Counted from the first letter of the stretch, positions 6,777 to 51,789 are shown. The stretch: 64,000 nucleotides of DNA from Minisyncoccota bacterium (GCA_041664425.1 JBAYKU010000003.1:3373-67372), one strand, 5' to 3'. Notes: generated from the letters alone by a model not told the origin. A program made the numbers and translations.

Positions 6777-6842
6777 TTTTTCTTTACTTTTTTGCTCAAA
6801 TTGGTATTATTTGCTTGCTTTTTTAGATATTTAGAGAAGTTG

Positions 6843-6917
6843 TTGCCCCGTTAGCTCAGCTGGTAGAGCAGTTGCCTTTTAAGCAAACGGTCGTAGGTTC
6901 GATTCCTACACGGGGCA
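6843..6917 (+). tRNA. tRNA-Lys (anticodon TTT)
   Basis: cloverleaf GCCCCGT...ACGGGGCA, anticodon loop CTTTTAA, T-arm GGTTCGATTCC. Confidence 0.85.
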
Positions 6918-6988
6918 CAAAATAAAATAACCGACCTGTGAGCGGTTTTTATTTTGTGCCTAATTGAATTCTAAGTTAGGATGTTTTT

Positions 6989-7462
6989 ATGGCTAAAAAA
7001 GACCTATCGCTAATTCTCCATAATATCCGCAGTTCTCACAATGTGGGGGCGATTTTTCGTACGGCTGATGGGGCAGGGGTGAGTAAAATTTACCTGACTG
7101 GTTATACCCCGAAACCGATTGACCAATTTGGCCGACCAGATAAAGCTCTGGCGAAGACTGCTCTCGGTGCCGAGAAGACTATAGCCTGGCAATATCTGGC
7201 TTCCGCCTCAACTTTGATCAATAAACTTAAGAAATCAGGTACAGAAATTATCGCCTTAGAACAAGCGCCTGATTCGGTAGATTTCCGGCGGGCTAAAATC
7301 AAATGGCCGGCCGCCCTCTTGTTGGGCGAGGAGGTGGAGGGGGTTAATAAAGCGCTACTAAAAAAAAGTGATCAGATTATTGAAATCCCGATGCGAGGGC
7401 AAAAAGAATCACTCAACGTTTCGGTGGCCACCGGTATTGCAGTTTATGAAATTTTGAAGTAA
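6989..7462 (+). CDS. TrmH/SpoU family RNA 2'-O-methyltransferase
   Basis: SpoU methylase motifs (HNVGAIFRTADGAG, LLLGEEVEGV, NVSVATGIAVYE). Confidence 0.8.
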   Translation: MAKKDLSLILHNIRSSHNVGAIFRTADGAGVSKIYLTGYTPKPIDQFGRPDKALAKTALGAEKTIAWQYLASASTLINKLKKSGTEIIALEQAPDSVDFRRAKIKWPAALLLGEEVEGVNKALLKKSDQIIEIPMRGQKESLNVSVATGIAVYEILK

Positions 7463-7512
7463 TTTAGATAAGGTTTTTCTGAATATTTTTTAAAAATTTG
7501 ATGAGCCAAGTG

Positions 7513-7685
7513 TTTTTTAGGGGGAAAGGATTTTCTAAGTTCACCCTATGGAATAGCAAAGCGAAATTTGTCAAAAAAACTTACTTAATTTCAAAATGGC
7601 TGGGCTTGGGTCTGGGTTTTGAAATTAAGAAAGTTTTTGAACAAATTTATTCCATGGGGCAGGAAAAATCCGTACCCTAAAAAAT
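7513..7685. mobile_element. MITE-like element copy 1 (~173 bp) with ~22-bp terminal inverted repeats TTTTTAGGGGG...AAAAATCCGTACCCTAAAAAA and an internal palindrome TTAATTTCAAAA/TTTTGAAATTAA
   Basis: TIRs read directly; a related copy lies at 15537-15625 in opposite orientation. Confidence 0.5.
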
Positions 7686-7747
7686 AGCTTGGAGAAGAAA
7701 TGTAAAAAATGTTTAGAAAAACTGTTTACTAATTTATTTATAAAACT

Positions 7748-8425
7748 ATGGAAGAAACTGGTTTGACTAAAATTACGCTCCTGTCGATCATCACCATTTT
7801 GATTGTTGGCTCTTTGATTGGGGGAAGTATTTATTTGAAAAAAGGTGAGGGGAGCGATATGGCCACTAGTTCACTGGCCATGGTTGGGGCAATTAATAAT
7901 CAAGCTAGTTCTACTAATCAACAAACAACTATGCCAGAAATAACTATTGATAAAAATAAAAATTACAGCGTTGTGCTTCATACCACTGAAGGTGATATTG
8001 CTATCGAGCTTGCGGCTCAGGCGACCCCAGTTACTGTTAATAATTTTGTGACTTTAGCTAAAAAAGATTTTTATAACGGCACGATTTTCCATCGGGTGAT
8101 CAAGGGCTTTATGATCCAGGGTGGTGATCCGACAGGTACGGGTATGGGTGGTCCTGGTTATAAATTTAACGATGAACCGTTTGCTGGTGAATATACTCGC
8201 GGGACAGTGGCCATGGCCAACGCTGGTCCCAATACCAACGGTTCCCAATTCTTTATCATGCACGCGGATGTCCCACTACCAAAGGCTTATGTGATTTTTG
8301 GTAAGGTGATATCCGGGATGGAAACGGTGGATAAAATTGCGACCGCTCCCGTTAAGGCTGGTGGTGAGAATTCCTCTCCCATTAATCCAGTTAAGGTGAC
8401 CTCTGTAGAGGTGATAGAGAAGTAG
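7748..8425 (+). CDS. peptidyl-prolyl cis-trans isomerase, cyclophilin type, membrane anchored
   Basis: cyclophilin motifs (FHRVIKGFMIQGGDPTGTG, GTVAMANAGPNTNGSQFFI); N-terminal TM helix. Confidence 0.85.
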   Translation: MEETGLTKITLLSIITILIVGSLIGGSIYLKKGEGSDMATSSLAMVGAINNQASSTNQQTTMPEITIDKNKNYSVVLHTTEGDIAIELAAQATPVTVNNFVTLAKKDFYNGTIFHRVIKGFMIQGGDPTGTGMGGPGYKFNDEPFAGEYTRGTVAMANAGPNTNGSQFFIMHADVPLPKAYVIFGKVISGMETVDKIATAPVKAGGENSSPINPVKVTSVEVIEK

Positions 8426-8447
8426 TAAAAGTAGTAGAGTAGTAAGC

Positions 8448-8497
8448 AAAAACCCCTGATTTGTGCGAAGTCGGACTTCGCACAAATCAGGGGTTTT
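8448..8497 (+). terminator. strong rho-independent terminator (20-bp perfect stem)
   Basis: aaaacccctgatttgtgcgaagtc / gacttcgcacaaatcaggggtttt. Confidence 0.75.
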
Positions 8498-9043
8498 ATT
8501 GTAAAAAAGGAACGCCATCACTGGAGGTGATGGCGTTAGACGAAAGAGAATGGAAAAGGGACCCCGCTCGTAGAGCCTTTGGGTAGGTGGCTAGCAAGAG
8601 ACCTTATCACCCTCCGCAATCATCTGGCCGGATGATTGTTTCAAGCAATTTGGCTTTCTACCTAGCGTCCTTTACGCGCCCTTCCATACTGAGCGATCAA
8701 CTCAGTTAATATCTACTGGATGAAGTGGCGTACCATGATTAACCAGCATAACCATGCAGTCTTTACGATTCCGACTGCCGGCGCTTTTCCAGTCCTCTTT
8801 CAATTCCACTGACATTTCTAGCAGATTTGATTGTTTTTGGCAATGAAAAAGGCCATCGCAGAGAGAATCGCCTTTTTCGCTCGCCACTACTGGGTTGTGA
8901 CCTTTCTCGTCTATGGGCAGACTTGCGATGGCCTGTGACGACAATGTATCAAGATAGATTATTTTTGGCAATGGCTACAGAAATGAGCCCTAACAGTTTT
9001 TATTTCATAAAACTGAAAGGGTAAATTCCTCAACTTTGGCATA

Positions 9044-9910
9044 TTACTTTTGACAATTTGCGCAGTATTGGGTACCCCTACCGAGAAGTCTGATTTTTTG
9101 AATTGGTCGTTTGCAGACTTTGCAGGGTTGGCCAGCTCGGCCATAGACCTGGAGATGGGGGACGAAGCCACCCTGACTGCCATCGCTTCTGACGTAGTTG
9201 CGACTAGAGGTGCCGTGTTTACTGATGGAATGTTTGAGGACGGCGATAATCGCTTGGTGTAATTTTTTAGATTCAGGGCCGGTTATTTTGCCAGCGAGTC
9301 GGGTAGGTAAAATCTTGGCAATAAAACAACTTTCGTCAGCGTAGATATTGCCAATACCGGCGATGAGTTTTTGGTCGAGGAGAATTTGTTTGATTGGGCG
9401 ACGTGGATATGTGGAGAGAAGTGATTGAAAATATTTTAAAGAAAAATCTTTAGTCAGTGGTTCGGGCCCATGTTCGGCAAAAAGTTTGGCTACAGTGGCA
9501 TCATCGAGTAATTTAACCCAGCCGAATTTGCGCATGTCATTAAAGAAAAGTTTGGAGCCATCAGAGAAATCAAAAATCAGGCGGGTGAATTTGTTGGGTA
9601 AATTATCTAGTCCGCCAGGTTGAGGATGTCCACCAGAAATTATTTTTCCAGTTTTTGGTTGAAAAATCAGTTGCCCCGTCATTTTGAGATGAACGAGTAG
9701 GTCGAGCGGACCAGTCAATTTTATTCGAATCATTTTGGCGCGACGTTCAATGTCGGTAATTTTTGTATCGCTAATTTTTTTCTGGAAATCAGTAGGGGAA
9801 AGGGGAGCCACAGTTTTAGCCCATAGAATAGTGGCTTTGGTATTTTTTTTACCAACGATAACTTTGTTTAAGTCTTGTCTAATTGTCTCGACTTCGGGTA
9901 ATTCGGGCAT
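9044..9910 (-). CDS. fpg: formamidopyrimidine-DNA glycosylase (Fpg/MutM)
   Basis: N-terminal MPELPEVE, C-terminal zinc finger CKVCKRPIQK...YCANCQK. Confidence 0.85.
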   Translation of the reverse strand: MPELPEVETIRQDLNKVIVGKKNTKATILWAKTVAPLSPTDFQKKISDTKITDIERRAKMIRIKLTGPLDLLVHLKMTGQLIFQPKTGKIISGGHPQPGGLDNLPNKFTRLIFDFSDGSKLFFNDMRKFGWVKLLDDATVAKLFAEHGPEPLTKDFSLKYFQSLLSTYPRRPIKQILLDQKLIAGIGNIYADESCFIAKILPTRLAGKITGPESKKLHQAIIAVLKHSISKHGTSSRNYVRSDGSQGGFVPHLQVYGRAGQPCKVCKRPIQKIRLLGRGTQYCANCQK

Positions 9911-41081: not shown

Positions 41082-42746
41082 TTGTTAATGACTATCCAGG
41101 GGAAAATAAAATTAGCCATAAAAGATGCTTTGGGAGCTTTGGGTTTGCCGACTGGCGATTTTTTGTTGGAGCATCCGGCGGATTTGAACTTGGGTGACTA
41201 TGCTTCCAATGTGGCGATGGTTTTTGGTAAAAAGCACAATCGTCTGCCAAAGGATTTGGCTAGTGATATCATCAAACAGCTTTATTTGAATAACTATGAT
41301 TGGCTGGAAAAAGCCGAAGTGGCTGGTCCGGGTTTTATCAATATTTTTCTGACTAAAAAGTTTTTGACCGAGACGGTGGTTGATTTACAAACTGGAGAAC
41401 TGGGTTTGGTAGATTTTGGCACTGGCCAAAAAGCGATTGTGGAATATTCTTCGCCGAACATTGCTAAGCCTTTTTCCATCGGTCATTTGCGCTCGACAAT
41501 TATTGGTGCCGCGATCGCTAATCTGCTCGAGGTGAGTGGCTATAAAATTATTCGCCATAACTATCTCGGCGATTGGGGAACACAGTTTGGTAAGATGATA
41601 GTGGCGATTAAAAAATGGGGCGATCTGTCTGCTATCGAAAAAAGCGCCGAACCAGTCAAAGAGCTCGTGGCTCTCTATGTTCGTTTTCATGAAGAAGCCG
41701 AAAAAGATAAGGATTTGGATGACGAAGCTCGCTCGTGGTTTACAAAATTAGAACAGGGTAACGAAGAAGCCGTGGAAATTTGGCAGAAATGCATTGCTTT
41801 GTCGAAAGTTGATTTTACTAAAATCTATCAGCGATTGGGAGTGGAGTTCGATCTCGATCGAGGTGAGAGCTTTCTGGAGGGCAAGACTGGTCCAGTTTTA
41901 GTGGAAATAAAAAAGAGTGGTTTCGTCCATGAGAGCGAAGGAGCGACTTTATTTTTCTTTCCCGAAGATTCTTTACCACCAATGATGCTGGCGAAAAAAG
42001 ATGGTTCATCTTTGTATGCTCTGCGTGATCTAGCTTCGGATTTTGGCCGCCAGTCTGAATTTGCTCCGGACCTGATTATTAATGAAGCTGGCTCGGAACA
42101 AAAATTACATTTTGAGCAGGTAATAGAAGCTGAACGTTTGCTGGGCTGGTTCAGGCCAGGTCAGCGAGTCCATATTGGTCACGGTCTGTACCGTTTTGCC
42201 GAAGGAAAGATGAGTACTCGCAAAGGTAATGTGATTTGGCTCGAAGAAGTTTTGGATGAGGTGGTTAAACGAGCATCAGAATTTAATCCTGATTCGGCTG
42301 AAGCGGTGGGAATCGGAGCCTTGAAATACAACGATTTGAAACGAGACAGTAAACTCGATATTACTTTTGATTGGGATGATGTTTTAAATCTCAAAGGCAA
42401 CTCTGGCCCCTATTTGCAATACACTGTCGCTCGAGCCAAAGCGATCTTGGACAAGTCGGATAAAAATCCGGCGATTGGTAATAGTCTTGTTGGTACGGAT
42501 TTAGAACTCTCGCGCTGGCTGTATCGTTTCCCGGAAGTAGTAGAACGTTCGGCACGCGAATATGCCCCACATCAGCTTTGTACTTATCTCTATGAATTGG
42601 CCAGCACCTTTAATGCTTTTTATGCTCAAGAAAAAATTGTCGGTGGAGAAGGGGAGGAAAGTAAACTAGCTTTAGTTTCTGCCACGGCTAATATTTTAGC
42701 CAAGGGTTTGGATTTGCTTGGTATCGCCGTGCCAGAAAAAATGTAA
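41082..42746 (+). CDS. argS: arginyl-tRNA synthetase
   Basis: HIGH-like SIGHLRS, class I fold, anticodon-binding C-terminal domain. Confidence 0.85.
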   Translation: MLMTIQGKIKLAIKDALGALGLPTGDFLLEHPADLNLGDYASNVAMVFGKKHNRLPKDLASDIIKQLYLNNYDWLEKAEVAGPGFINIFLTKKFLTETVVDLQTGELGLVDFGTGQKAIVEYSSPNIAKPFSIGHLRSTIIGAAIANLLEVSGYKIIRHNYLGDWGTQFGKMIVAIKKWGDLSAIEKSAEPVKELVALYVRFHEEAEKDKDLDDEARSWFTKLEQGNEEAVEIWQKCIALSKVDFTKIYQRLGVEFDLDRGESFLEGKTGPVLVEIKKSGFVHESEGATLFFFPEDSLPPMMLAKKDGSSLYALRDLASDFGRQSEFAPDLIINEAGSEQKLHFEQVIEAERLLGWFRPGQRVHIGHGLYRFAEGKMSTRKGNVIWLEEVLDEVVKRASEFNPDSAEAVGIGALKYNDLKRDSKLDITFDWDDVLNLKGNSGPYLQYTVARAKAILDKSDKNPAIGNSLVGTDLELSRWLYRFPEVVERSAREYAPHQLCTYLYELASTFNAFYAQEKIVGGEGEESKLALVSATANILAKGLDLLGIAVPEKM

Positions 42747-42797
42747 CCCGTGCGGACGCTAGCGCGTCCGCACGGGGCGAAGAAGAGGGGCCAAATT

Positions 42798-43025
42798 TCA
42801 GTGGCCCTCTTTCTTGAGAATCCTTTTGGCACAAGGGGAAGTCTCTTGGAAGAATTCGAGGACAGAGTGAGGGTCTGCGTCCCACCTCTGAGCTAAGGCC
42901 TGTATCTGATAACCCAAGCCGGTCAGTTCCCCCCTTTGCTCCCGATCTACCTCGGGTTGGACAATACTTTTGACACCTTCCTCAACGAGCAGACACTCAA
43001 TTCCGTGACGGGTAAGATTTTTCAT
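42798..43025 (-). CDS. hypothetical small protein (GC-elevated), flanked by hairpins
   Basis: ORF only. Confidence 0.25.
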   Translation of the reverse strand: MKNLTRHGIECLLVEEGVKSIVQPEVDREQRGELTGLGYQIQALAQRWDADPHSVLEFFQETSPCAKRILKKEGH

Positions 43026-43125
43026 TACTTTTTCACCCCCTTTCGTGGATGGTTTATCTTCTGGTTGCAAACTAGCAGTTTTTGTTGTGGTTGTAAATAC
43101 CGCGTTTTTACGGTAAATTGTCTAA

Positions 43126-46100
43126 ATGGAAGAAAATAAAGACCTCGTAGAAAAATCAGCTCTCGCCAAGCGCGAGGAGGAGATTTTGGCTGGTTGGCAA
43201 ACTAAAAAAGTTTTTGAACAATCCTTGAATCAGAAGGCCTCTAAGGGAGAATTCGTTTTCTATGATGGTCCGCCTTTTGCCACGGGTCTGCCACATTATG
43301 GCCACTTGATTGGCGGCACCATCAAAGATGTTATTCCGCGTTATAAAACGATGCAGGGTTACCATGTCTCGCGTCGTTGGGGTTGGGACTGTCATGGTTT
43401 GCCAGTAGAAAACCTGATTGAAAAAGAACTCGATCTTAAAACCAAAAAAGAGATTGAGGACTACGGTATCGGTAATTTTAATGAGAAGGCCCGCGAGAGT
43501 GTCATGCGCTATGCTGATGAGTGGAAAAAAATCGTGCCACGCCTCGGTCGCTTTGTGGATATGGATAATGATTATCGGACAATGGATCCGAGCTATACCG
43601 AATCAATCTGGTGGATTTTCAAAAATCTTTACGACCAAGGTTTGATTTATGAGGGGTATAAGGCGATGCAGATTTGCCCACGTTGCGAGACGACCCTGTC
43701 GAACTTTGAGGTTAACCAGGGTTACAAAGATATCACTGATATTTCAGTCTTTATTAAATTTGAGTTGGTTGATGAACCCGGAACTTTTGTGGTGGCTTGG
43801 ACGACGACGCCTTGGACCTTGCCAGGGAATGTCGCTTTGGCCGTGGGTGCCGATCTAAAATATGTAGTGACTTCAGTAGAAAAAAACAAGTATATTCTTT
43901 TAGCTGAGCGGTTAGAATTTTTAAAAAATAAATTATTTGCCGATCAAGAAGTGGTAATAGAAAAAGAAATAACCGGTGCTGATTTGATCGGCTTACCTTA
44001 TGAACCAGTTTTTGATTACTATGCCAAAGACGAAACCTTAAAAAATCACGAACGTGGTTGGAGGGTATATGGCGCGGATTTTGTGACGACTGAAGATGGT
44101 ACTGGAGTGGTCCATATCGCCCCGGCTTTTGGTGAAGATGATATGAAGTTAGGCCAGAAAGAAAATTTGCCTTTTGTTCAACATGTGGCCATGAATGGTA
44201 CTTTCAAACCGGAGGTAGGGGATGGTCTGGCCGGTCTACGAGTGAAGCCGATTGAAAATCCCCAAGCGACTGATATCGAAATTATAAAAATCTTGGCGGT
44301 CAAGGGCTCACTTCTAGCCAAGGAAAAAATCGTTCACTCTTATCCGCATTGTTGGCGTTGTGAGACTCCGCTTCTCAACTATGCTACTTCGTCATGGTTT
44401 GTAGAGGTGACAAAAATCAAAGATAAATTAGTGACGGAAAATAAAAAAATCAATTGGGTGCCAGAGCATATTAAAGAAGGCCGATTTGGTAAATGGCTCG
44501 AAGGGGCCCGTGATTGGGCCATTTCTCGCACCCGTTTTTGGGGTGCTCCACTGCCGGTCTGGCGTTGCGAAGCTTGCCAGGAGAAGAAAGTTTTCGGCTC
44601 CTTGGCCGAATTGCAGGCCGTCATGGTGCCAGCTAAAAATAATTATTGGATTATGCGTCATGGCGAGGCTGAGAGTAATCTTGGTGATTCAATAAGCTCT
44701 GACCCTCTTGCCCCGAATCATTTGATAGAAAAAGGTAAAGATAAAGTTAAAGAGTCAGCTCAAAAATTGAAAGGAGAAAAAATCGACTTAATTATCTCAT
44801 CAGATTTTGTGCGAACAAAAGAAACAGCTGAAATTATGGCAGAGGAATTAGGTTTAACCTCAGATCAGATTGTTTTTGATGAGCGTTTGCGAGAAATTAA
44901 CCCAGGCAGCTTTACTGGTAAAAGTTGGGGTGACTACAACGACGCTTTTGGAGAGAGAATTAATCGTCTAAATGGGCGTTTACCTGGTGGTGGCGAGAAT
45001 TTTAATGAGGTGCGCCGTCGGGTGATGGCTGTTTTGTATGAATTTGAACAAAAATATCAAGGTAAAAAAATTCTGGTTATCACGCATGGTTTGCCGGCTT
45101 TTATGATTCAGGCTACGGTTGATCATTGGGATGATCGAGCGACTACTTATCGGCCTTATCCGAAGCCTAGTTTCGAACCAGGAGACGTTCGGGCTGTCAA
45201 TTTTGCCCCTATACCTCATAATAATAATTATGAATTAGACTACCATCGCCCATACATAGACGATATTGAAATGTCTTGTGCTTGTGGTGGGCAAATGAAG
45301 CGCGTGCCAGATGTCTTTGACTGCTGGTTTGAATCCGGCTCCATGCCCTATGGTCAAAATCACTATCCTTTTGAAAAAGAAAAAGGTGGTTTTGACCCGA
45401 CTAAGCAAACTTCCTTCCCAGCTGATTTTATCGCTGAGGGGCAAGATCAGACTCGAGGCTGGTTTTATACTATGTTGATTATTGGTACGGCTTTATTTGG
45501 TCAGAGTCCTTATAAAAATGTGGTGGTCAATGGTTTGGTTCTAGCTGAAGATGGCCAGAAAATGTCTAAACATCTGAAAAACTACCCTGATCCACTAGAT
45601 TTGGTCAACAAATATAGCGCCGATGTCTTGCGACTTTATTTGATGGCTTCGCCAGCAGTGCACGCCGAGGATCTAAACTTTTCCGAAAAAGGCGTGGGGG
45701 AGATCCAGCGTAAAATAATCTCTCGCTTACTTAACGTTGTGACTTTCTTAGAGACCTACGGCGAGGTCAAGGGAGGGGAGATTAAAACTCCCAAGACGGA
45801 TGACATTCTCGATCAATGGATTTTGTCACGTTTAGGTCAAACGATCGCTAAAGTCGAGAAAGAGTTTGAGGGCTATGAACTAGACCGTGCCGTCTGGGCC
45901 CTGGATGATTTTATTGACGACCTTTCAAACTGGTATCTGCGTCGCAGTCGAGATCGTTTTCGTGGTGACAATCAAACCGATCGTGAGCAAGCCAATCAAA
46001 CTTTGTTGTTTGTTCTGTCGGTGACGGCTAAAATTTTAGCTCCGCTAGCACCATTTTCTGCCGATGATATCTACTTGCGCCTAACCGATGGTCAGGCTAA

Positions 46101-46644
46101 AGACAGTGTCCATCTGGAAACTTGGCCAGAAGCAATATCGACCGATGAAAAATTGATTGATCTAATGAAAGAAGTGCGAAAAGTAGTAACTTTAGGTTTG
46201 GAGATGCGCATGTCAGCTGGGGTCAAGGTGCGTCAGCCTTTGCAGAGTATCGCTATTGCTGATAAAAAATTGTTGGGACAAAATGAATTATTGGAACTGG
46301 TCAAAGATGAATTGAATGTTAAAGAAGTTATTTTTGATCAGGCTTCAGGGGAGCCGGTCTGGTTGGAGACGAAGATAACCCCAGCTTTGCGTGAAGAGGG
46401 AATGGCTCGTGATTTTATTCGTCTGATTCAGGAAAAACGCAAACAAGAAAATTTGGTGCCGAGTGATCAGGCTGGTCTAAAGATTTTTGTTCGTCCTAGA
46501 AGCCAAGAAGTTTTTAAAAAGTTTATTGATGAAATCAAGCTGGTGGCCGGGTTGAGTGGGGTAGAATTTTTGTCTACTGAGCCAGGGACTGATCCAGATG
46601 GATCAGTCCAAGAAGAACCAGTTTGGTTGGATTTGGTTCGTTAG
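43126..46644 (+). CDS. ileS: isoleucyl-tRNA synthetase carrying a ~195-aa inserted histidine-phosphatase (PGAM-like) domain between the WGAPLP and DVFDCWFESG blocks
   Basis: HYGH (HIGH), CP1 editing domain, KMSKH (KMSKS); insert has RHG, SSDFVRTKET, GGENFNEVRRR, ITHG phosphatase motifs (nt ~44638-45225). Confidence 0.85.
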   Translation: MEENKDLVEKSALAKREEEILAGWQTKKVFEQSLNQKASKGEFVFYDGPPFATGLPHYGHLIGGTIKDVIPRYKTMQGYHVSRRWGWDCHGLPVENLIEKELDLKTKKEIEDYGIGNFNEKARESVMRYADEWKKIVPRLGRFVDMDNDYRTMDPSYTESIWWIFKNLYDQGLIYEGYKAMQICPRCETTLSNFEVNQGYKDITDISVFIKFELVDEPGTFVVAWTTTPWTLPGNVALAVGADLKYVVTSVEKNKYILLAERLEFLKNKLFADQEVVIEKEITGADLIGLPYEPVFDYYAKDETLKNHERGWRVYGADFVTTEDGTGVVHIAPAFGEDDMKLGQKENLPFVQHVAMNGTFKPEVGDGLAGLRVKPIENPQATDIEIIKILAVKGSLLAKEKIVHSYPHCWRCETPLLNYATSSWFVEVTKIKDKLVTENKKINWVPEHIKEGRFGKWLEGARDWAISRTRFWGAPLPVWRCEACQEKKVFGSLAELQAVMVPAKNNYWIMRHGEAESNLGDSISSDPLAPNHLIEKGKDKVKESAQKLKGEKIDLIISSDFVRTKETAEIMAEELGLTSDQIVFDERLREINPGSFTGKSWGDYNDAFGERINRLNGRLPGGGENFNEVRRRVMAVLYEFEQKYQGKKILVITHGLPAFMIQATVDHWDDRATTYRPYPKPSFEPGDVRAVNFAPIPHNNNYELDYHRPYIDDIEMSCACGGQMKRVPDVFDCWFESGSMPYGQNHYPFEKEKGGFDPTKQTSFPADFIAEGQDQTRGWFYTMLIIGTALFGQSPYKNVVVNGLVLAEDGQKMSKHLKNYPDPLDLVNKYSADVLRLYLMASPAVHAEDLNFSEKGVGEIQRKIISRLLNVVTFLETYGEVKGGEIKTPKTDDILDQWILSRLGQTIAKVEKEFEGYELDRAVWALDDFIDDLSNWYLRRSRDRFRGDNQTDREQANQTLLFVLSVTAKILAPLAPFSADDIYLRLTDGQAKDSVHLETWPEAISTDEKLIDLMKEVRKVVTLGLEMRMSAGVKVRQPLQSIAIADKKLLGQNELLELVKDELNVKEVIFDQASGEPVWLETKITPALREEGMARDFIRLIQEKRKQENLVPSDQAGLKIFVRPRSQEVFKKFIDEIKLVAGLSGVEFLSTEPGTDPDGSVQEEPVWLDLVR

Positions 46645-49268: not shown

Positions 49269-50354
49269 ATGAACGGCAACGATCGAATCAATTTAGTCAG
49301 TCTATCTTTCAATACTCTCTGGAAGGCGGTTTTGGTTTTCGGTATCGTTTTCTTTGTCTATTATTTGCGAGACGTTTTTCTGGTCTTACTAACCTCGATT
49401 GTTTTTGGTTCGGCGGTTCGACCATTTTCTAATTGGTTTGAGAAATTTAAAATTCCTCGCGTTTTTTCGGTTCTTTTGGTTTATATTATTGCCTTCTCTG
49501 TTGTCCTGGGAACTTTGTATTTTATTATTCCGCCGATTTTTGGAGACATGCTCGATATCGCTCAGACTTTGCCGGCCAAGATTAACTCCTTTATGCAGAC
49601 TAACTCGACTTGGAGCAGTGTGACTGATTTTTCGAACAGTTTTGTTAATGATTTTTCCATTAATGATCTGATGAATTCCAATGTCAGTTCCTATCTCCCA
49701 GCTATCCCTAAAAATGTCATGGAGTTAATCACTTTTCTCTTTAACGGTATTTTTAGCTTCGTTTTGATTATTATTATTTCTTTCTATATTGCTGTTCAGA
49801 AAAATGGTGTTGAGGAATTTTTACGTCTGGTTGTGCCTCTGCGAAGCGAAAATTATGTGATTGATCTCTGGCGAAGAGTTGAAAAGAAGATCGGTGGTTG
49901 GCTCCAAGGGCAGATTTTACTGGGTATTATTATTGGGCCACTCGTTTTTCTCGGTTTGACTTTGTTGGGAGTAAAATACGCTTTGATTTTAGCTATTTTG
50001 GCAGCCGTTTTTGAACTCATCCCATTTTTTGGGCCAGTGCTCTCGGCGGTGCCGGCAGTAATTTTTGCTTTTTCGACTGGGGTGCCGGTCGGTTTAATGA
50101 CAGTTGGTTTCTATGTTGTCGTCCAGCAATTTGAGAACCATCTGATTTATCCATTGGTCGTGCGCAAGATTATTGGCGTGCCACCCCTGATTGTGATTAT
50201 TTCTTTGGTTATTGGGGCCAAACTAGCTGGTTTTCTGGGTATAATTTTAGCAGTACCAGTGGCAACTTTGTTTATGGAGATGGCTAATGATATGGAAACT
50301 CGTAAGGGACTTTTCCGTCTTCAAAGTGCTCAGGCGGAAAAAAATGAAAACTAA
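49269..50354 (+). CDS. AI-2E family (PerM/UPF0118) transporter
   Basis: 8 TM topology and family-typical sequence. Confidence 0.7.
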   Translation: MNGNDRINLVSLSFNTLWKAVLVFGIVFFVYYLRDVFLVLLTSIVFGSAVRPFSNWFEKFKIPRVFSVLLVYIIAFSVVLGTLYFIIPPIFGDMLDIAQTLPAKINSFMQTNSTWSSVTDFSNSFVNDFSINDLMNSNVSSYLPAIPKNVMELITFLFNGIFSFVLIIIISFYIAVQKNGVEEFLRLVVPLRSENYVIDLWRRVEKKIGGWLQGQILLGIIIGPLVFLGLTLLGVKYALILAILAAVFELIPFFGPVLSAVPAVIFAFSTGVPVGLMTVGFYVVVQQFENHLIYPLVVRKIIGVPPLIVIISLVIGAKLAGFLGIILAVPVATLFMEMANDMETRKGLFRLQSAQAEKNEN

Positions 50355-51789
50355 TTCTTCTCGTTTTTATATCACAACCACTTTGCCTTATGTAAATGCT
50401 AAACCGCATCTTGGTTTTGCGATGGAAATTATTCGGGCTGATATTATTGCTCGCTATCACGGGGCGCTAGGGGAGGAAGTCTTTTTTAACACGGGCACCG
50501 ATGAACATGGTCAGAAGATTTATGATAAGGCTATTGAACTAGGGCAGACCCCTCAGGCCTATGTTGATGAACTAGCCGAGAAATTTCGCGATCTAATCAC
50601 ACCACTGGGTATTAGTTCTGATATTCATTTTATTCGGACGACTGATCAAAATCACATTGAAGCGGCTCAGGAATTTTGGCGTCAATGCGATCACAATGGC
50701 TTTATTTATAAGAAGAATTACCAGACCAAGTATTGTGTTGGTTGTGAATTGGAGAAAACTGACTCAGAACTCGTGGATGGCAAGTGCCCACTTCATTCCA
50801 ATTTAATTTTAGAAATTAGGGATGAGGAAAATTATTTTTTCAAATTTTCGGCTTTTGGTGATAAACTTCTGGCTTTCTATGAAGCGCGACCAGATTTTAT
50901 TTTTCCGGCTGAACGGGTCAATGAGATGAAAGCGTTGATTGAACGGGGTCTGCAAGACTTTAGTATTTCCCGGCTAGCGACGAAAATGTCGTGGGGTATT
51001 CCAGTGCCTGGCGATGAGACTCAGGTGATGTATGTCTGGTTTGATGCTCTAGTGAACTATGTCTCGGCTGTCGGCTGGCCTGATGACCAGGACAGTTTCA
51101 AAAAATGGTGGCTCGATAATGGTGGAGTGGTGCAATATTGTGGCAAGGACAATCTCCGTCAGCAGACAGCTATGTGGCAGGCGATGTTAATGGCCGCCGA
51201 TATTCCGAACTCTAAATGTGTCATTGTTGAAGGTTTTGTCACTAGTGGTGGTCAAAAGATGAGTAAGAGTGCCGGTAATGTCGTTGATCCGCTAGCAGTG
51301 GTAGAAAAATATGGCACTGATGCTCTGCGCTATTTTGTGGCGGGGGAATTGGCTATGTTTGAAGACAGTGATTTTACTTGGGAGCGTTTCCATGATGCTT
51401 ATAATTCCAAACTGGCCAATGGCCTGGGTAATCTCGTCAGTCGGGTGATGAAAATGTCGGAGAGTTATCTCCCTGAGCCGGTGACAGTGGGGGAAGTAGC
51501 TTTGCCTGATGAATTTAAAAAATGGTTAGACGTTTTTGATATTGGTCGGGCGACTGATTTGATTTGGCAAAAAATTACTGAGCTTGATCTTAAAATTCAA
51601 GCCACTCAACCCTTCAAATTAATTAAAGAAGCTCGCCCCGCGGCGGAAAAAATAGTGGCGGAGCTGGTGCAGGGAGTAGCCGAGATTGCCGAGATGTTAA
51701 GTTTTATCATGCCAGCCACCGCCGAAAAAATAAAAGTTTTGATTAAGGAAAACAAAATGCCGGAGCCGCTCTTTTTGCGTAAAAACTAA
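50344..51789 (+). CDS. metG: methionyl-tRNA synthetase (short form)
   Basis: PYVNAKPHLGFA (HIGH region), Zn knuckle CVGCE...CPLH, KMSKS. Confidence 0.85.
   Translation: MKTNSSRFYITTTLPYVNAKPHLGFAMEIIRADIIARYHGALGEEVFFNTGTDEHGQKIYDKAIELGQTPQAYVDELAEKFRDLITPLGISSDIHFIRTTDQNHIEAAQEFWRQCDHNGFIYKKNYQTKYCVGCELEKTDSELVDGKCPLHSNLILEIRDEENYFFKFSAFGDKLLAFYEARPDFIFPAERVNEMKALIERGLQDFSISRLATKMSWGIPVPGDETQVMYVWFDALVNYVSAVGWPDDQDSFKKWWLDNGGVVQYCGKDNLRQQTAMWQAMLMAADIPNSKCVIVEGFVTSGGQKMSKSAGNVVDPLAVVEKYGTDALRYFVAGELAMFEDSDFTWERFHDAYNSKLANGLGNLVSRVMKMSESYLPEPVTVGEVALPDEFKKWLDVFDIGRATDLIWQKITELDLKIQATQPFKLIKEARPAAEKIVAELVQGVAEIAEMLSFIMPATAEKIKVLIKENKMPEPLFLRKN

Follow-up and report, generated by a model that had tools for sequence, protein, structure and literature searches.

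Why should an essential aminoacyl-tRNA synthetase carry a phosphatase within its own body? The question is raised by the ileS gene of a Minisyncoccota bacterium, which occupies positions 43126..46644 (+ strand) of a 64,000-nucleotide stretch of DNA (GCA_041664425.1, JBAYKU010000003.1:3373-67372; this whole stretch is called the window below). The gene is an uninterrupted open reading frame (ORF) of 1172 amino acids (aa) for a type-2 isoleucyl-tRNA synthetase (IleRS) with an embedded histidine phosphatase domain. Our analysis indicates that the embedded domain is a predicted active phosphatase, that relatives of it are encoded in related genomes either within IleRS or by a separate gene next to ileS, and that the phosphatase is most likely a dedicated partner of the synthetase.

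The family of the inserted domain is readily recognized. Within the whole protein, His_Phos_1 (PF00300) matches aa 508-663 (E=2.8e-29; 102.6 bits, gathering score 21.7) and divides the Pfam match of the synthetase family tRNA-synt_1 into two, and the insert alone scores 106.7 bits against the same family. The score and the divided synthetase match together place the observation far beyond chance. The insert has the alpha/beta fold that defines branch 1 of the histidine phosphatase superfamily. Its nearest structures are metabolic small-molecule phosphatases, it is much closer to PhoE (183 residues aligned) than to SixA (136 residues aligned) or PGAM5, and it carries the full cap typical of small-molecule enzymes; Nudix MutT1, RNase H/CobC and PFK-2/FBPase-2 are also among its structure and family matches. 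Structure prediction, which a preliminary description of the locus had proposed as a check on the autonomy of the insert, supports an autonomous PhoE-like fold. The motifs quoted in that description were all recovered where it had placed them, both those of the synthetase (WAISRTRFWGAPLPVW, aa 464-479; DVFDCWFESGS, aa 729-739) and those of the insert (IMRHGEAESN, aa 509-518; ISSDFVRTKETA, aa 557-568; GGENFNEVRRR, aa 622-632; VITHGLP, aa 651-657).

The predicted active site is complete and strongly conserved. In 117 full-length homologs R511, H512, G513 and R563 are invariant and N518, E590 and H654 are conserved in at least 95%, and yet the inserts of these proteins are on average only 42% identical to that of the window as compared to 63-68% for the synthetase core. 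All 217 complete copies inserted at the same position as in the window (site A) have both arginines and both histidines, the acidic residue being Glu in 209 and Asp in 8 of them. The catalytic set is also kept in every copy at two further insertion sites (B and C, see below), in all tandem copies and in 115 free-standing copies, which makes more than 330 complete copies overall. Retention of the catalytic residues despite low overall identity is the signature of a working enzyme rather than of a decayed or purely structural module. We regard the insert as a complete, autonomously folding branch-1 histidine phosphatase of the PhoE/CobC type, predicted from fold and residues to be active. The earlier proposal of a functional-looking fused histidine phosphatase domain is thus borne out by the PF00300 match, the PhoE-like fold and the catalytic residues kept in all copies.

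The more specific label "PGAM-like" given in the preliminary description stands only as far as the superfamily is concerned. The insert scores below the cut-offs of all models for cofactor-dependent phosphoglycerate mutase (dPGM), namely NF038349, TIGR01258, PRK01295 and others (archaeal dPGM, 74 against 225), and lacks the dPGM-specific motifs. It likewise fails as a CobC alpha-ribazole-5'-phosphate phosphatase (TIGR03162, 76.7 bits against a cut-off of 162.9) and as a SixA phosphohistidine phosphatase (TIGR00249, 42.5 bits against 74.5), a protein whose fold is moreover minimal and capless. Since it remains below all equivalog cut-offs, the insert is best assigned to the small-molecule phosphatases of the PhoE/CobC/phosphoserine-phosphatase subgroup and not to the strict phosphoglycerate mutases. 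Nor is it an ordinary zinc-binding subdomain of IleRS, the outcome that the preliminary description had named as fatal to its claim: the four cysteines of the zinc knuckle are kept, yet about 200 added residues beside them adopt the PhoE-like fold.

Where in the synthetase does this domain sit? The preliminary description had placed it at aa ~505-700 (nt ~44638-45225), which is essentially right and can be refined to aa 500-700 (nt 44623-45225). In pairwise alignments about 205 residues (window aa ~500-704) stand where solved IleRSs have 6-9; residues 499 and 705 of the window protein correspond to residues 491 and 498 of the human enzyme (9w01), and residues 497 and 702 to residues 475 and 484 of Priestia megaterium IleRS2 (8c8u). 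The insert follows the WxISRxRFWG...PVW strand, precedes DVFDCWFESGS and is flanked by the two zinc-knuckle pairs C481-x2-C484 and C718-x-C720. In insert-less relatives the helix "GSxxEL..." continues straight into "DLHRPxID" and the four knuckle cysteines are kept. As the flanks are joined directly in these relatives, the domain has been inserted cleanly, its linkers measuring about 5 and 10 residues; the base composition runs evenly through the insert without a break. The insertion point, a zinc-knuckle connective loop on the surface, belongs to the second half of the Rossmann-fold catalytic domain and lies outside the active-site core, and the retained cysteines and directly joined flanks of insert-less relatives speak against the earlier placement of the domain inside the catalytic core. 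This loop is probably the zinc-binding connective peptide of the second Rossmann half. Papers on IleRS structures divide the enzyme into catalytic domain, connective peptides (CP core, the editing domain ED/CP1, CP2 and CP3), stem-contact fold and anticodon-binding domain.

The surrounding synthetase appears to be fully equipped. The uninterrupted ORF and the model TIGR00392 (isoleucine--tRNA ligase equivalog), which the whole protein passes with 906 bits against a cut-off of 621.4, agree with the 1172-aa IleS at 43126-46644 that had been reported. The nearest solved relatives by sequence are the human (9w01), P. megaterium IleRS2 (8c8u), yeast (7d5c/8wnd) and Thermus thermophilus (1ile) enzymes (E 1e-216 to 1e-223), and type-1 IleRS structures match much more weakly (E 1e-80 to 1e-103). 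An AlphaFold2 model of the full-length protein built from 116 homologs has a predicted local distance difference test score (pLDDT) of 92.3 and a predicted template modelling score (pTM) of 0.86, and its top Foldseek matches are IleRS2 (8c8u/8c9d) and the yeast IleRS-tRNA complex (8wnd). The HIGH motif is present as HYGH (aa 57-60, nt 43294-43305) and the KMSKS motif as KMSKH (aa 812-816, nt 45559-45573), with H57, G59, K812 and K815 invariant in the 116 homologs. The CP1 editing motifs WTTTPWT (aa 225-231) and GTGVVHIAPAFGEDD (aa 325-339) show little or no variation in the same set, and the isolated IleRS editing domain 1wk8 aligns to aa 199-408. Given this conservation of synthetic and editing motifs, both canonical IleRS active sites look intact. 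Type-2 enzymes are defined in a 2026 preprint by a C-terminus of the ARD2/ARD3 type (Pfam DUF5915) that lacks the C-terminal zinc-binding domain of IleRS1, and the window protein shows this organization, with DUF5915 at its C-terminus (Table 1). The host protein is thus a member of the type-2 IleRSs, for which motifs and family membership predict aminoacylation of tRNA-Ile, and ileS is the housekeeping type-2 IleRS gene of a bacterium of the Parcubacteria group (Candidatus Paceibacterota).

The architecture is not confined to the window. The exact 1172-aa protein has the public accession MFA6416106.1 and the title [quoted passage not shown]; it is encoded on a 119-kb contig and present in NCBI, JGI, Logan and ENA. 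A protein from an independent JGI assembly (P0024) is 100% identical over aa ~320-945, that is over the whole insert and both junctions. PF00133 and PF00300 occur together in all 120 of the best full-length homologs (54-94% identity, 1150-1224 aa), which carry the names Paceibacterota, Vogelbacteria, Yonathbacteria, Pacebacteria and Minisyncoccia. An exhaustive phmmer search with the insert against 1.84 billion cluster representatives returned 893 proteins at E <=1e-10, the best 150 of which comprise both copies embedded in IleRS and separate proteins of about 190 aa, and a scan of GTDB species representatives with an 11-sequence alignment found at least 520 stretches encoding a relative. The named groups that were checked belong to the Parcubacteria group of Patescibacteria. 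The alignments suggested by the preliminary description thus yield junctions that match solved IleRSs and an architecture that is common across the Parcubacteria group.

Two observations on these relatives may be added. P0024 differs from the window sequence 43126-44100 only in N-terminal patches at aa ~9-45, 210-225 and 290-315, including indels of 6 and 8 residues, a mosaic pattern that suggests recombination between strains. One locus of the embedded type (L083, DATKUR010000003.1) is labelled "Candidatus Humimicrobiaceae bacterium", which is not a Parcubacteria-like name and could reflect mis-binning or horizontal transfer.

The strongest indication of what the domain is for comes from genomes in which it is a protein of its own. 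Its nearest free-standing homologs (P0005, 189 aa, 41% identical; P0008, 192 aa) are encoded directly upstream of genes for insert-less IleRSs of 977 and 1015 aa, the intergenic gaps being 3 and 1 nt, and the gene order on the contig L001 (AA_kinase, ArgRS, phosphatase, IleRS) agrees with the argS-ileS synteny of the window. We classified 80 loci of GTDB species representatives with local hidden Markov models (HMMs). The domain is embedded in 27 of them, each time at site A, and free-standing in 53. An insert-less IleRS follows the free-standing gene on the same strand in 52 of these 53, and ArgRS precedes it in 51; the stop-to-start spacing between phosphatase gene and ileS lies between -98 and +121 nt in 41 of the 52 and is commonly -4 or +1 to +5. 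None of the 80 loci combines an embedded with an adjacent copy, and a six-frame HMM search detected no remnant of a phosphatase gene in the argS-ileS spacer of the window. The complementarity of fused and split forms is a Rosetta-stone indication that phosphatase and IleRS function together, and makes the phosphatase most likely a dedicated IleRS partner. As to how often the two states have interchanged, a neighbor-joining tree of the IleRS core from 74 genomes gives about 6 changes, a number that is not reliable, and the neighbor-joining tree of the phosphatase domain, with 30 parsimony changes, is too noisy for its number to be relied upon; both trees are distance-based and unrooted.

The two states also differ in charge. 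Free-standing copies have a median isoelectric point (pI) of 9.1 (net charge +4) and embedded copies one of 6.4 (net -2), the insert of the window having a pI of 5.9 and its IleRS core being acidic (pI 5.2). One may speculate that a basic free copy and an acidic IleRS core would be compatible with an electrostatic complex in the split form.

Variations of the split arrangement were also seen. The locus L030 (MHOT01000012.1, Staskawiczbacteria) has two tandem free phosphatase genes between argS and ileS. At 11 split-type loci (among them L009, L010, L011, L014, L027 and L033) one to four extra ORFs lie between phosphatase gene and ileS. These are heterogeneous and include a CYTH triphosphate-tunnel protein, PaaX/Cas2-like proteins, a pyridoxal-phosphate-dependent (PALP) enzyme, a phosphoenolpyruvate-utiliser mobile-domain protein and several without Pfam match. 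On the split-type contig L001 an ORF at 559-1569, about 2.7 kb upstream of argS, shows a faint LAGLIDADG_3 match and is possibly homing-endonuclease-like. A distant free homolog (P0011, 197 aa; L005:5001-5594) is encoded 1.2 kb upstream of a LeuRS gene (6792-9188) with two small genes between, an arrangement that may have arisen by chance or reflect a looser tie to a further class-Ia synthetase.

Site A is not the only place that the domain has entered. Site B is a loop at window aa ~746-760 that leads into the strand FIAEG (P0199, P0219, P0192), and site C, at window aa ~884-895, lies where the stem-contact region gives way to the anticodon-binding helix bundle (P0208, P0243, P0219). Tandem copies occur at site A (P0197, P0200, P0229), and one protein that reaches the contig end (P0144) contains four copies, one of them apparently before the N2 segment. 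The metagenomic IleRS relatives with two to four phosphatase domains (P0144, P0197, P0200, P0229, P0192, P0219, P0243 and P0208) keep the catalytic residues in all copies. With identities of only 25-40% to any other copy, the extra ones are old. All insertion sites are variable surface loops, and no N- or C-terminal fusion was found among more than 250 fused proteins. Loss of the phosphatase stop codon would readily give an N-terminal fusion, and the internal position of the domain therefore seems to be selected.

What might a phosphatase do for IleRS? The reading that we favour, tentatively, is that of a bifunctional protein in which IleRS is joined to a dedicated phosphatase partner whose substrate is probably nucleotide-like and linked to the IleRS cycle. 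The domain would work as a phosphomonoesterase by the route established for the histidine phosphatase superfamily: His512 would attack the phosphate of a phosphomonoester held by Arg511, Arg563, Asn518 and His654, Glu590 would protonate the leaving group, and the phospho-histidine intermediate would then be hydrolysed. A small nucleotide-like substrate is favoured by the full cap and by the nearest neighbours, which are small-molecule and nucleotide phosphatases. Of the two roles suggested in the preliminary description, action on a phospho-nucleotide or regulation, the former would accord with these neighbours. A substrate from the IleRS cycle is favoured because known fusions of this fold usually share the substrate cycle of their partner, as in MutT1, RNase H/CobC and PFK-2/FBPase-2. 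The substrate might be a product of the AMP type, or else tRNA-Ile whose terminal A76 carries a phosphate and could not be charged until this is removed, and tethering would ensure a stoichiometry of 1:1 or higher and proximity to IleRS.

Several of our observations weigh against this reading. The insert stays below every NCBIfam equivalog cut-off and no substrate can be deduced from it. Embedded domains are near-neutral (median pI 6.4) and hence not obvious RNA binders. More distant free-standing homologs do not adjoin ileS. The conserved neighbourhood (smpB, infC, rplT, an AA_kinase-family gene, argS, ileS and recO) is a general housekeeping and translation cluster, so that adjacency of phosphatase gene and ileS could reflect co-expression only, and no recurrent third partner such as a kinase, a CCA-adding enzyme or an RNA-repair enzyme was found at the 80 loci. 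Two neighbouring strands (VFD, ~730, and FIAEG, 768-772) are entered at their N-terminal ends from sites A and B, and predicted secondary structure and strand topology suggest that the phosphatase may lie on the face away from the active-site crevice. Finally, multiple tandem copies would be expected of a metabolic enzyme needed in high dosage no less than of one with a specific role in cis.

The last of these points leads to the alternative that survives best, although we consider it rather unlikely: that of a hitch-hiking housekeeping phosphatase, for example a nucleotidase or a sugar-phosphate or phosphoserine phosphatase, with no mechanistic link to aminoacylation. Such an enzyme would have belonged to the growth-coupled argS-ileS operon of a Parcubacteria ancestor and dropped into permissive loops of IleRS, both activities being needed by the cell. 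Its metabolic small-molecule relatives among known structures, its generic gene neighbourhood, the surface loops used at every insertion site, the dosage-like tandem and multi-copy variants and the non-basic nature of the embedded domain are all in keeping with this scenario. It leaves unexplained why the easy terminal fusion, with genes 1-5 nt apart or overlapping, is never seen and three internal sites are used instead, and why the adjacent and the embedded state complement each other strictly in lineages that share only ~40-58% identity in their phosphatase domains. Moreover, a foreign domain inside an essential enzyme is costly unless its position is useful.

A narrower proposal is that the phosphatase provides a third catalytic site acting on tRNA-Ile or on IleRS itself, that is a built-in end-healing or de-blocking activity for a phosphate on A76 (or on the enzyme). 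The damage would arise, for example, from toxins of the phosphotransfer or tRNase kind, and repair would be coupled directly to recharging. We hold this to be improbable.

Still less probable is a built-in protein phosphatase that would relieve IleRS itself, or a partner, of an inhibitory phosphate. It has a precedent for the lesion, as the KMSKS loop of class-I synthetases, or a site close to it, is the target of toxin kinases (GltX for HipA, TrpS for HipT). The corresponding serine (S814) is Ala in 9 of 116 insert-bearing IleRSs, however, and no kinase recurs in the neighbourhood of the 80 loci, both of which weaken a model of self-dephosphorylation; in addition, the full small-molecule cap and the far greater nearness to PhoE than to SixA or PGAM5 do not suit a protein phosphatase, and two to four copies per IleRS are hard to square with a single site in cis. 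We give a similarly poor, if anything slightly poorer, chance to a non-catalytic module with a structural, tRNA-binding or phospho-metabolite-sensing role, whose pocket would bind without turnover. Such a module would need the phosphate-binding arginines, but the proton donor (Glu/Asp) and both histidines are kept as well in all of the more than 330 complete copies, and the embedded domains are not basic.

An artefact or selfish element (assembly chimera, frameshifted gene pair, intein or other mobile insertion) can practically be dismissed, its sole faint echo being the tripeptide PHN in the C-terminal linker (aa 697-699), since the ORF is continuous and uniform in composition, the same sequence recurs in independent assemblies, more than 200 homologs share what is a clade-wide architecture, and the insert is a conserved enzyme fold. 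An assembly artefact, the other outcome held to be fatal by the preliminary description, is thereby excluded. Its statement that intein termini are missing also holds: no Hint or intein domain is matched in Pfam, and at the junctions (start ...MVPAKNNYW, end ...PIPHN-N-NYEL) HN is followed by Asn and not by Cys, Ser or Thr.

How does the protein compare with known systems? With the IleRS2 of P. megaterium (8C8U/8C9D), T. thermophilus IleRS (1ILE) and yeast IleRS (8WND) it shares the Rossmann/HUP domain with HIGH and KMSKS motifs, CP1, the zinc-knuckle Cys pairs, the helical anticodon-binding domain and DUF5915 (Foldseek template modelling score ~0.8, normalised to target length), and it differs from them by the ~205 residues at the insertion point. 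The insert is 20-25% identical to PhoE (YhfR) of Geobacillus stearothermophilus (1EBB/1H2E), iPSP (4IJ5), GpgP (6S2Q) and CobC (6E4B). Unlike these enzymes of stand-alone metabolic context, it is embedded in, or in relatives operon-coupled to, an aminoacyl-tRNA synthetase. An IleRS with an added enzymatic domain has a precedent in NF040702 (ileS_w_GNAT, [quoted passage not shown]), in which however the accessory fold is GNAT rather than histidine phosphatase; with 337 bits against a cut-off of 1999 the window protein is not a member. Other partner enzymes of the phosphatase fold are RNase H in the RNase H/acid phosphatase of the Rv2228c type (NF005567, the cut-off of 326 bits not being reached by the insert) and Nudix in MutT1 (Rv2985, 9CXX). 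Both of these, as far as is known, are end-to-end fusions and not insertions into the catalytic domain of the partner.

A conceptual precedent is offered by the CP1 editing domain of IleRS, ValRS and LeuRS and the INS domain of ProRS, which are the classical hydrolytic domains inserted in the catalytic domain of a synthetase, and they show that an insertion of this kind can bring with it a further active site for the same substrate cycle. In contrast to CP1, a universal and ancient aminoacyl-ester hydrolase, the domain described here has a phosphomonoesterase fold, is found in one clade, occupies another loop and is a separate gene in sister lineages. Aminoacyl-tRNA synthetases rank with the most thoroughly studied enzymes. 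To our knowledge, editing domains are the only hydrolytic domains known to be inserted in their catalytic bodies. Neither a phosphatase domain nor the Patescibacteria are mentioned in a 2026 preprint that annotated 96,219 IleRS sequences for their domain architectures. We found no prior description of a phosphatase in any synthetase in open-access papers and preprints, a scope within which absence is not proof. The preliminary description, which knew of no described IleS with such an insert, was right as regards this literature; the sequences themselves are present clade-wide in hundreds of public records, under the names "class I tRNA ligase family protein", "Isoleucine--tRNA ligase" or "hypothetical protein" that leave the extra domain unmentioned. 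New, then, is the recognition of the phosphatase-bearing IleRS and of its fused, split and multi-site pattern in sequences that were already in the databases and had gone unrecognised.

The pattern matters because the phosphatase is welded into, or translationally coupled to, an essential IleRS across a large radiation of ultra-small, host-dependent bacteria, whose minimal genomes hold few dispensable genes. The complementarity of fused and split forms, the use of at least three internal sites and the lack of terminal fusions point to an undiscovered link between phosphate-ester hydrolysis and isoleucine charging. If the phosphatase is a dedicated IleRS partner, a new accessory reaction of aminoacyl-tRNA synthetases is possible, be it product clearance, repair of tRNA ends or regulation. 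Were end-healing to be its function, the aminoacyl-tRNA synthetases would gain a novel class of function in quality control or defence, one that the modularity of the system, with the phosphatase fused at several sites or supplied in trans, would open to experiment. The system is, moreover, a natural case of domain insertion versus gene splitting that is amenable to standard biochemistry. On the practical side, the NCBI pipeline demotes such proteins to "class I tRNA ligase family protein", and the domain may be wrongly counted as a phosphoglycerate mutase in metabolic reconstructions. The features of the locus are collected in Table 1.

Table 1. Coordinates of ileS features and of the upstream region in the window
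Feature	Position (nt)	Strand	Remarks
argS (arginyl-tRNA synthetase), conserved upstream neighbour	41082..42746	+	ORF; synteny in 51 split loci
argS-ileS spacer, place of the free phosphatase gene in split genomes	42747..43125	.	379 nt
N-terminal half of catalytic domain and CP1 editing domain, aa 1-499	43126..44622	+	Pfam tRNA-synt_1, aa 20-506
Zinc-knuckle Cys pair 1, C481-x2-C484	44566..44577	+	Invariant in homolog alignment; kept in insert-less relatives
Inserted His_Phos_1 domain (PhoE/CobC-like), aa 500-700	44623..45225	+	Folded core aa 506-691; linkers aa 500-505 and 692-700
RHG motif: R511, H512 (predicted nucleophile), G513	44656..44664	+	Aligns to PhoE R9/H10
R563, second phosphate-pocket Arg	44812..44814	+	Aligns to PhoE R59; kept in 217/217 site-A copies
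E590, predicted proton donor	44893..44895	+	Aligns to PhoE E83; Glu in 209 and Asp in 8 of 217 site-A copies
H654, second catalytic His	45085..45087	+	Aligns to PhoE H151; kept in 217/217 site-A copies
C-terminal half of catalytic domain and stem-contact region, aa 701-895	45226..45810	+	DVFDCWFESGS at nt 45310-45342; KMSKH
Zinc-knuckle Cys pair 2, C718-x-C720	45277..45285	+	Invariant in homolog alignment
Anticodon-binding helical domain, aa 896-1041	45811..46248	+	Pfam Anticodon_1, E=1.2e-29
Type-2 C-terminal domain, aa 1078-1138	46357..46539	+	Pfam PF19302 (DUF5915), E=8.3e-12

The spacer between argS and ileS is unusually long and shows a bump in GC content. A perfect GC-rich hairpin of 13 bp (42747-42776) follows immediately after the argS stop codon, a pattern scan marks a promoter-like site at 42826-42855, and a terminator-like hairpin with a T-run (43086-43104) lies about 20 nt upstream of the ileS start. 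As the spacer matches nothing in Rfam, no T-box can be recognised in it; it may act as a leader or attenuator for ileS. Within it, on the other strand, lies a probably spurious ORF of 90 aa (42798-43070, -) for which Pfam gives no match.

Downstream, a MetRS-like gene (50251-51786, +; 512 aa, tRNA-synt_1g, E=7e-100) is the third class-I synthetase gene within 10 kb, and the cluster of ArgRS, IleRS and MetRS-like genes is interspersed with genes for RecO, a DUF11 surface protein and an AI-2E transporter. The recO-like ORF, taken from its first possible start at 46598, overlaps the 3' end of ileS by 47 nt (46598-46644).

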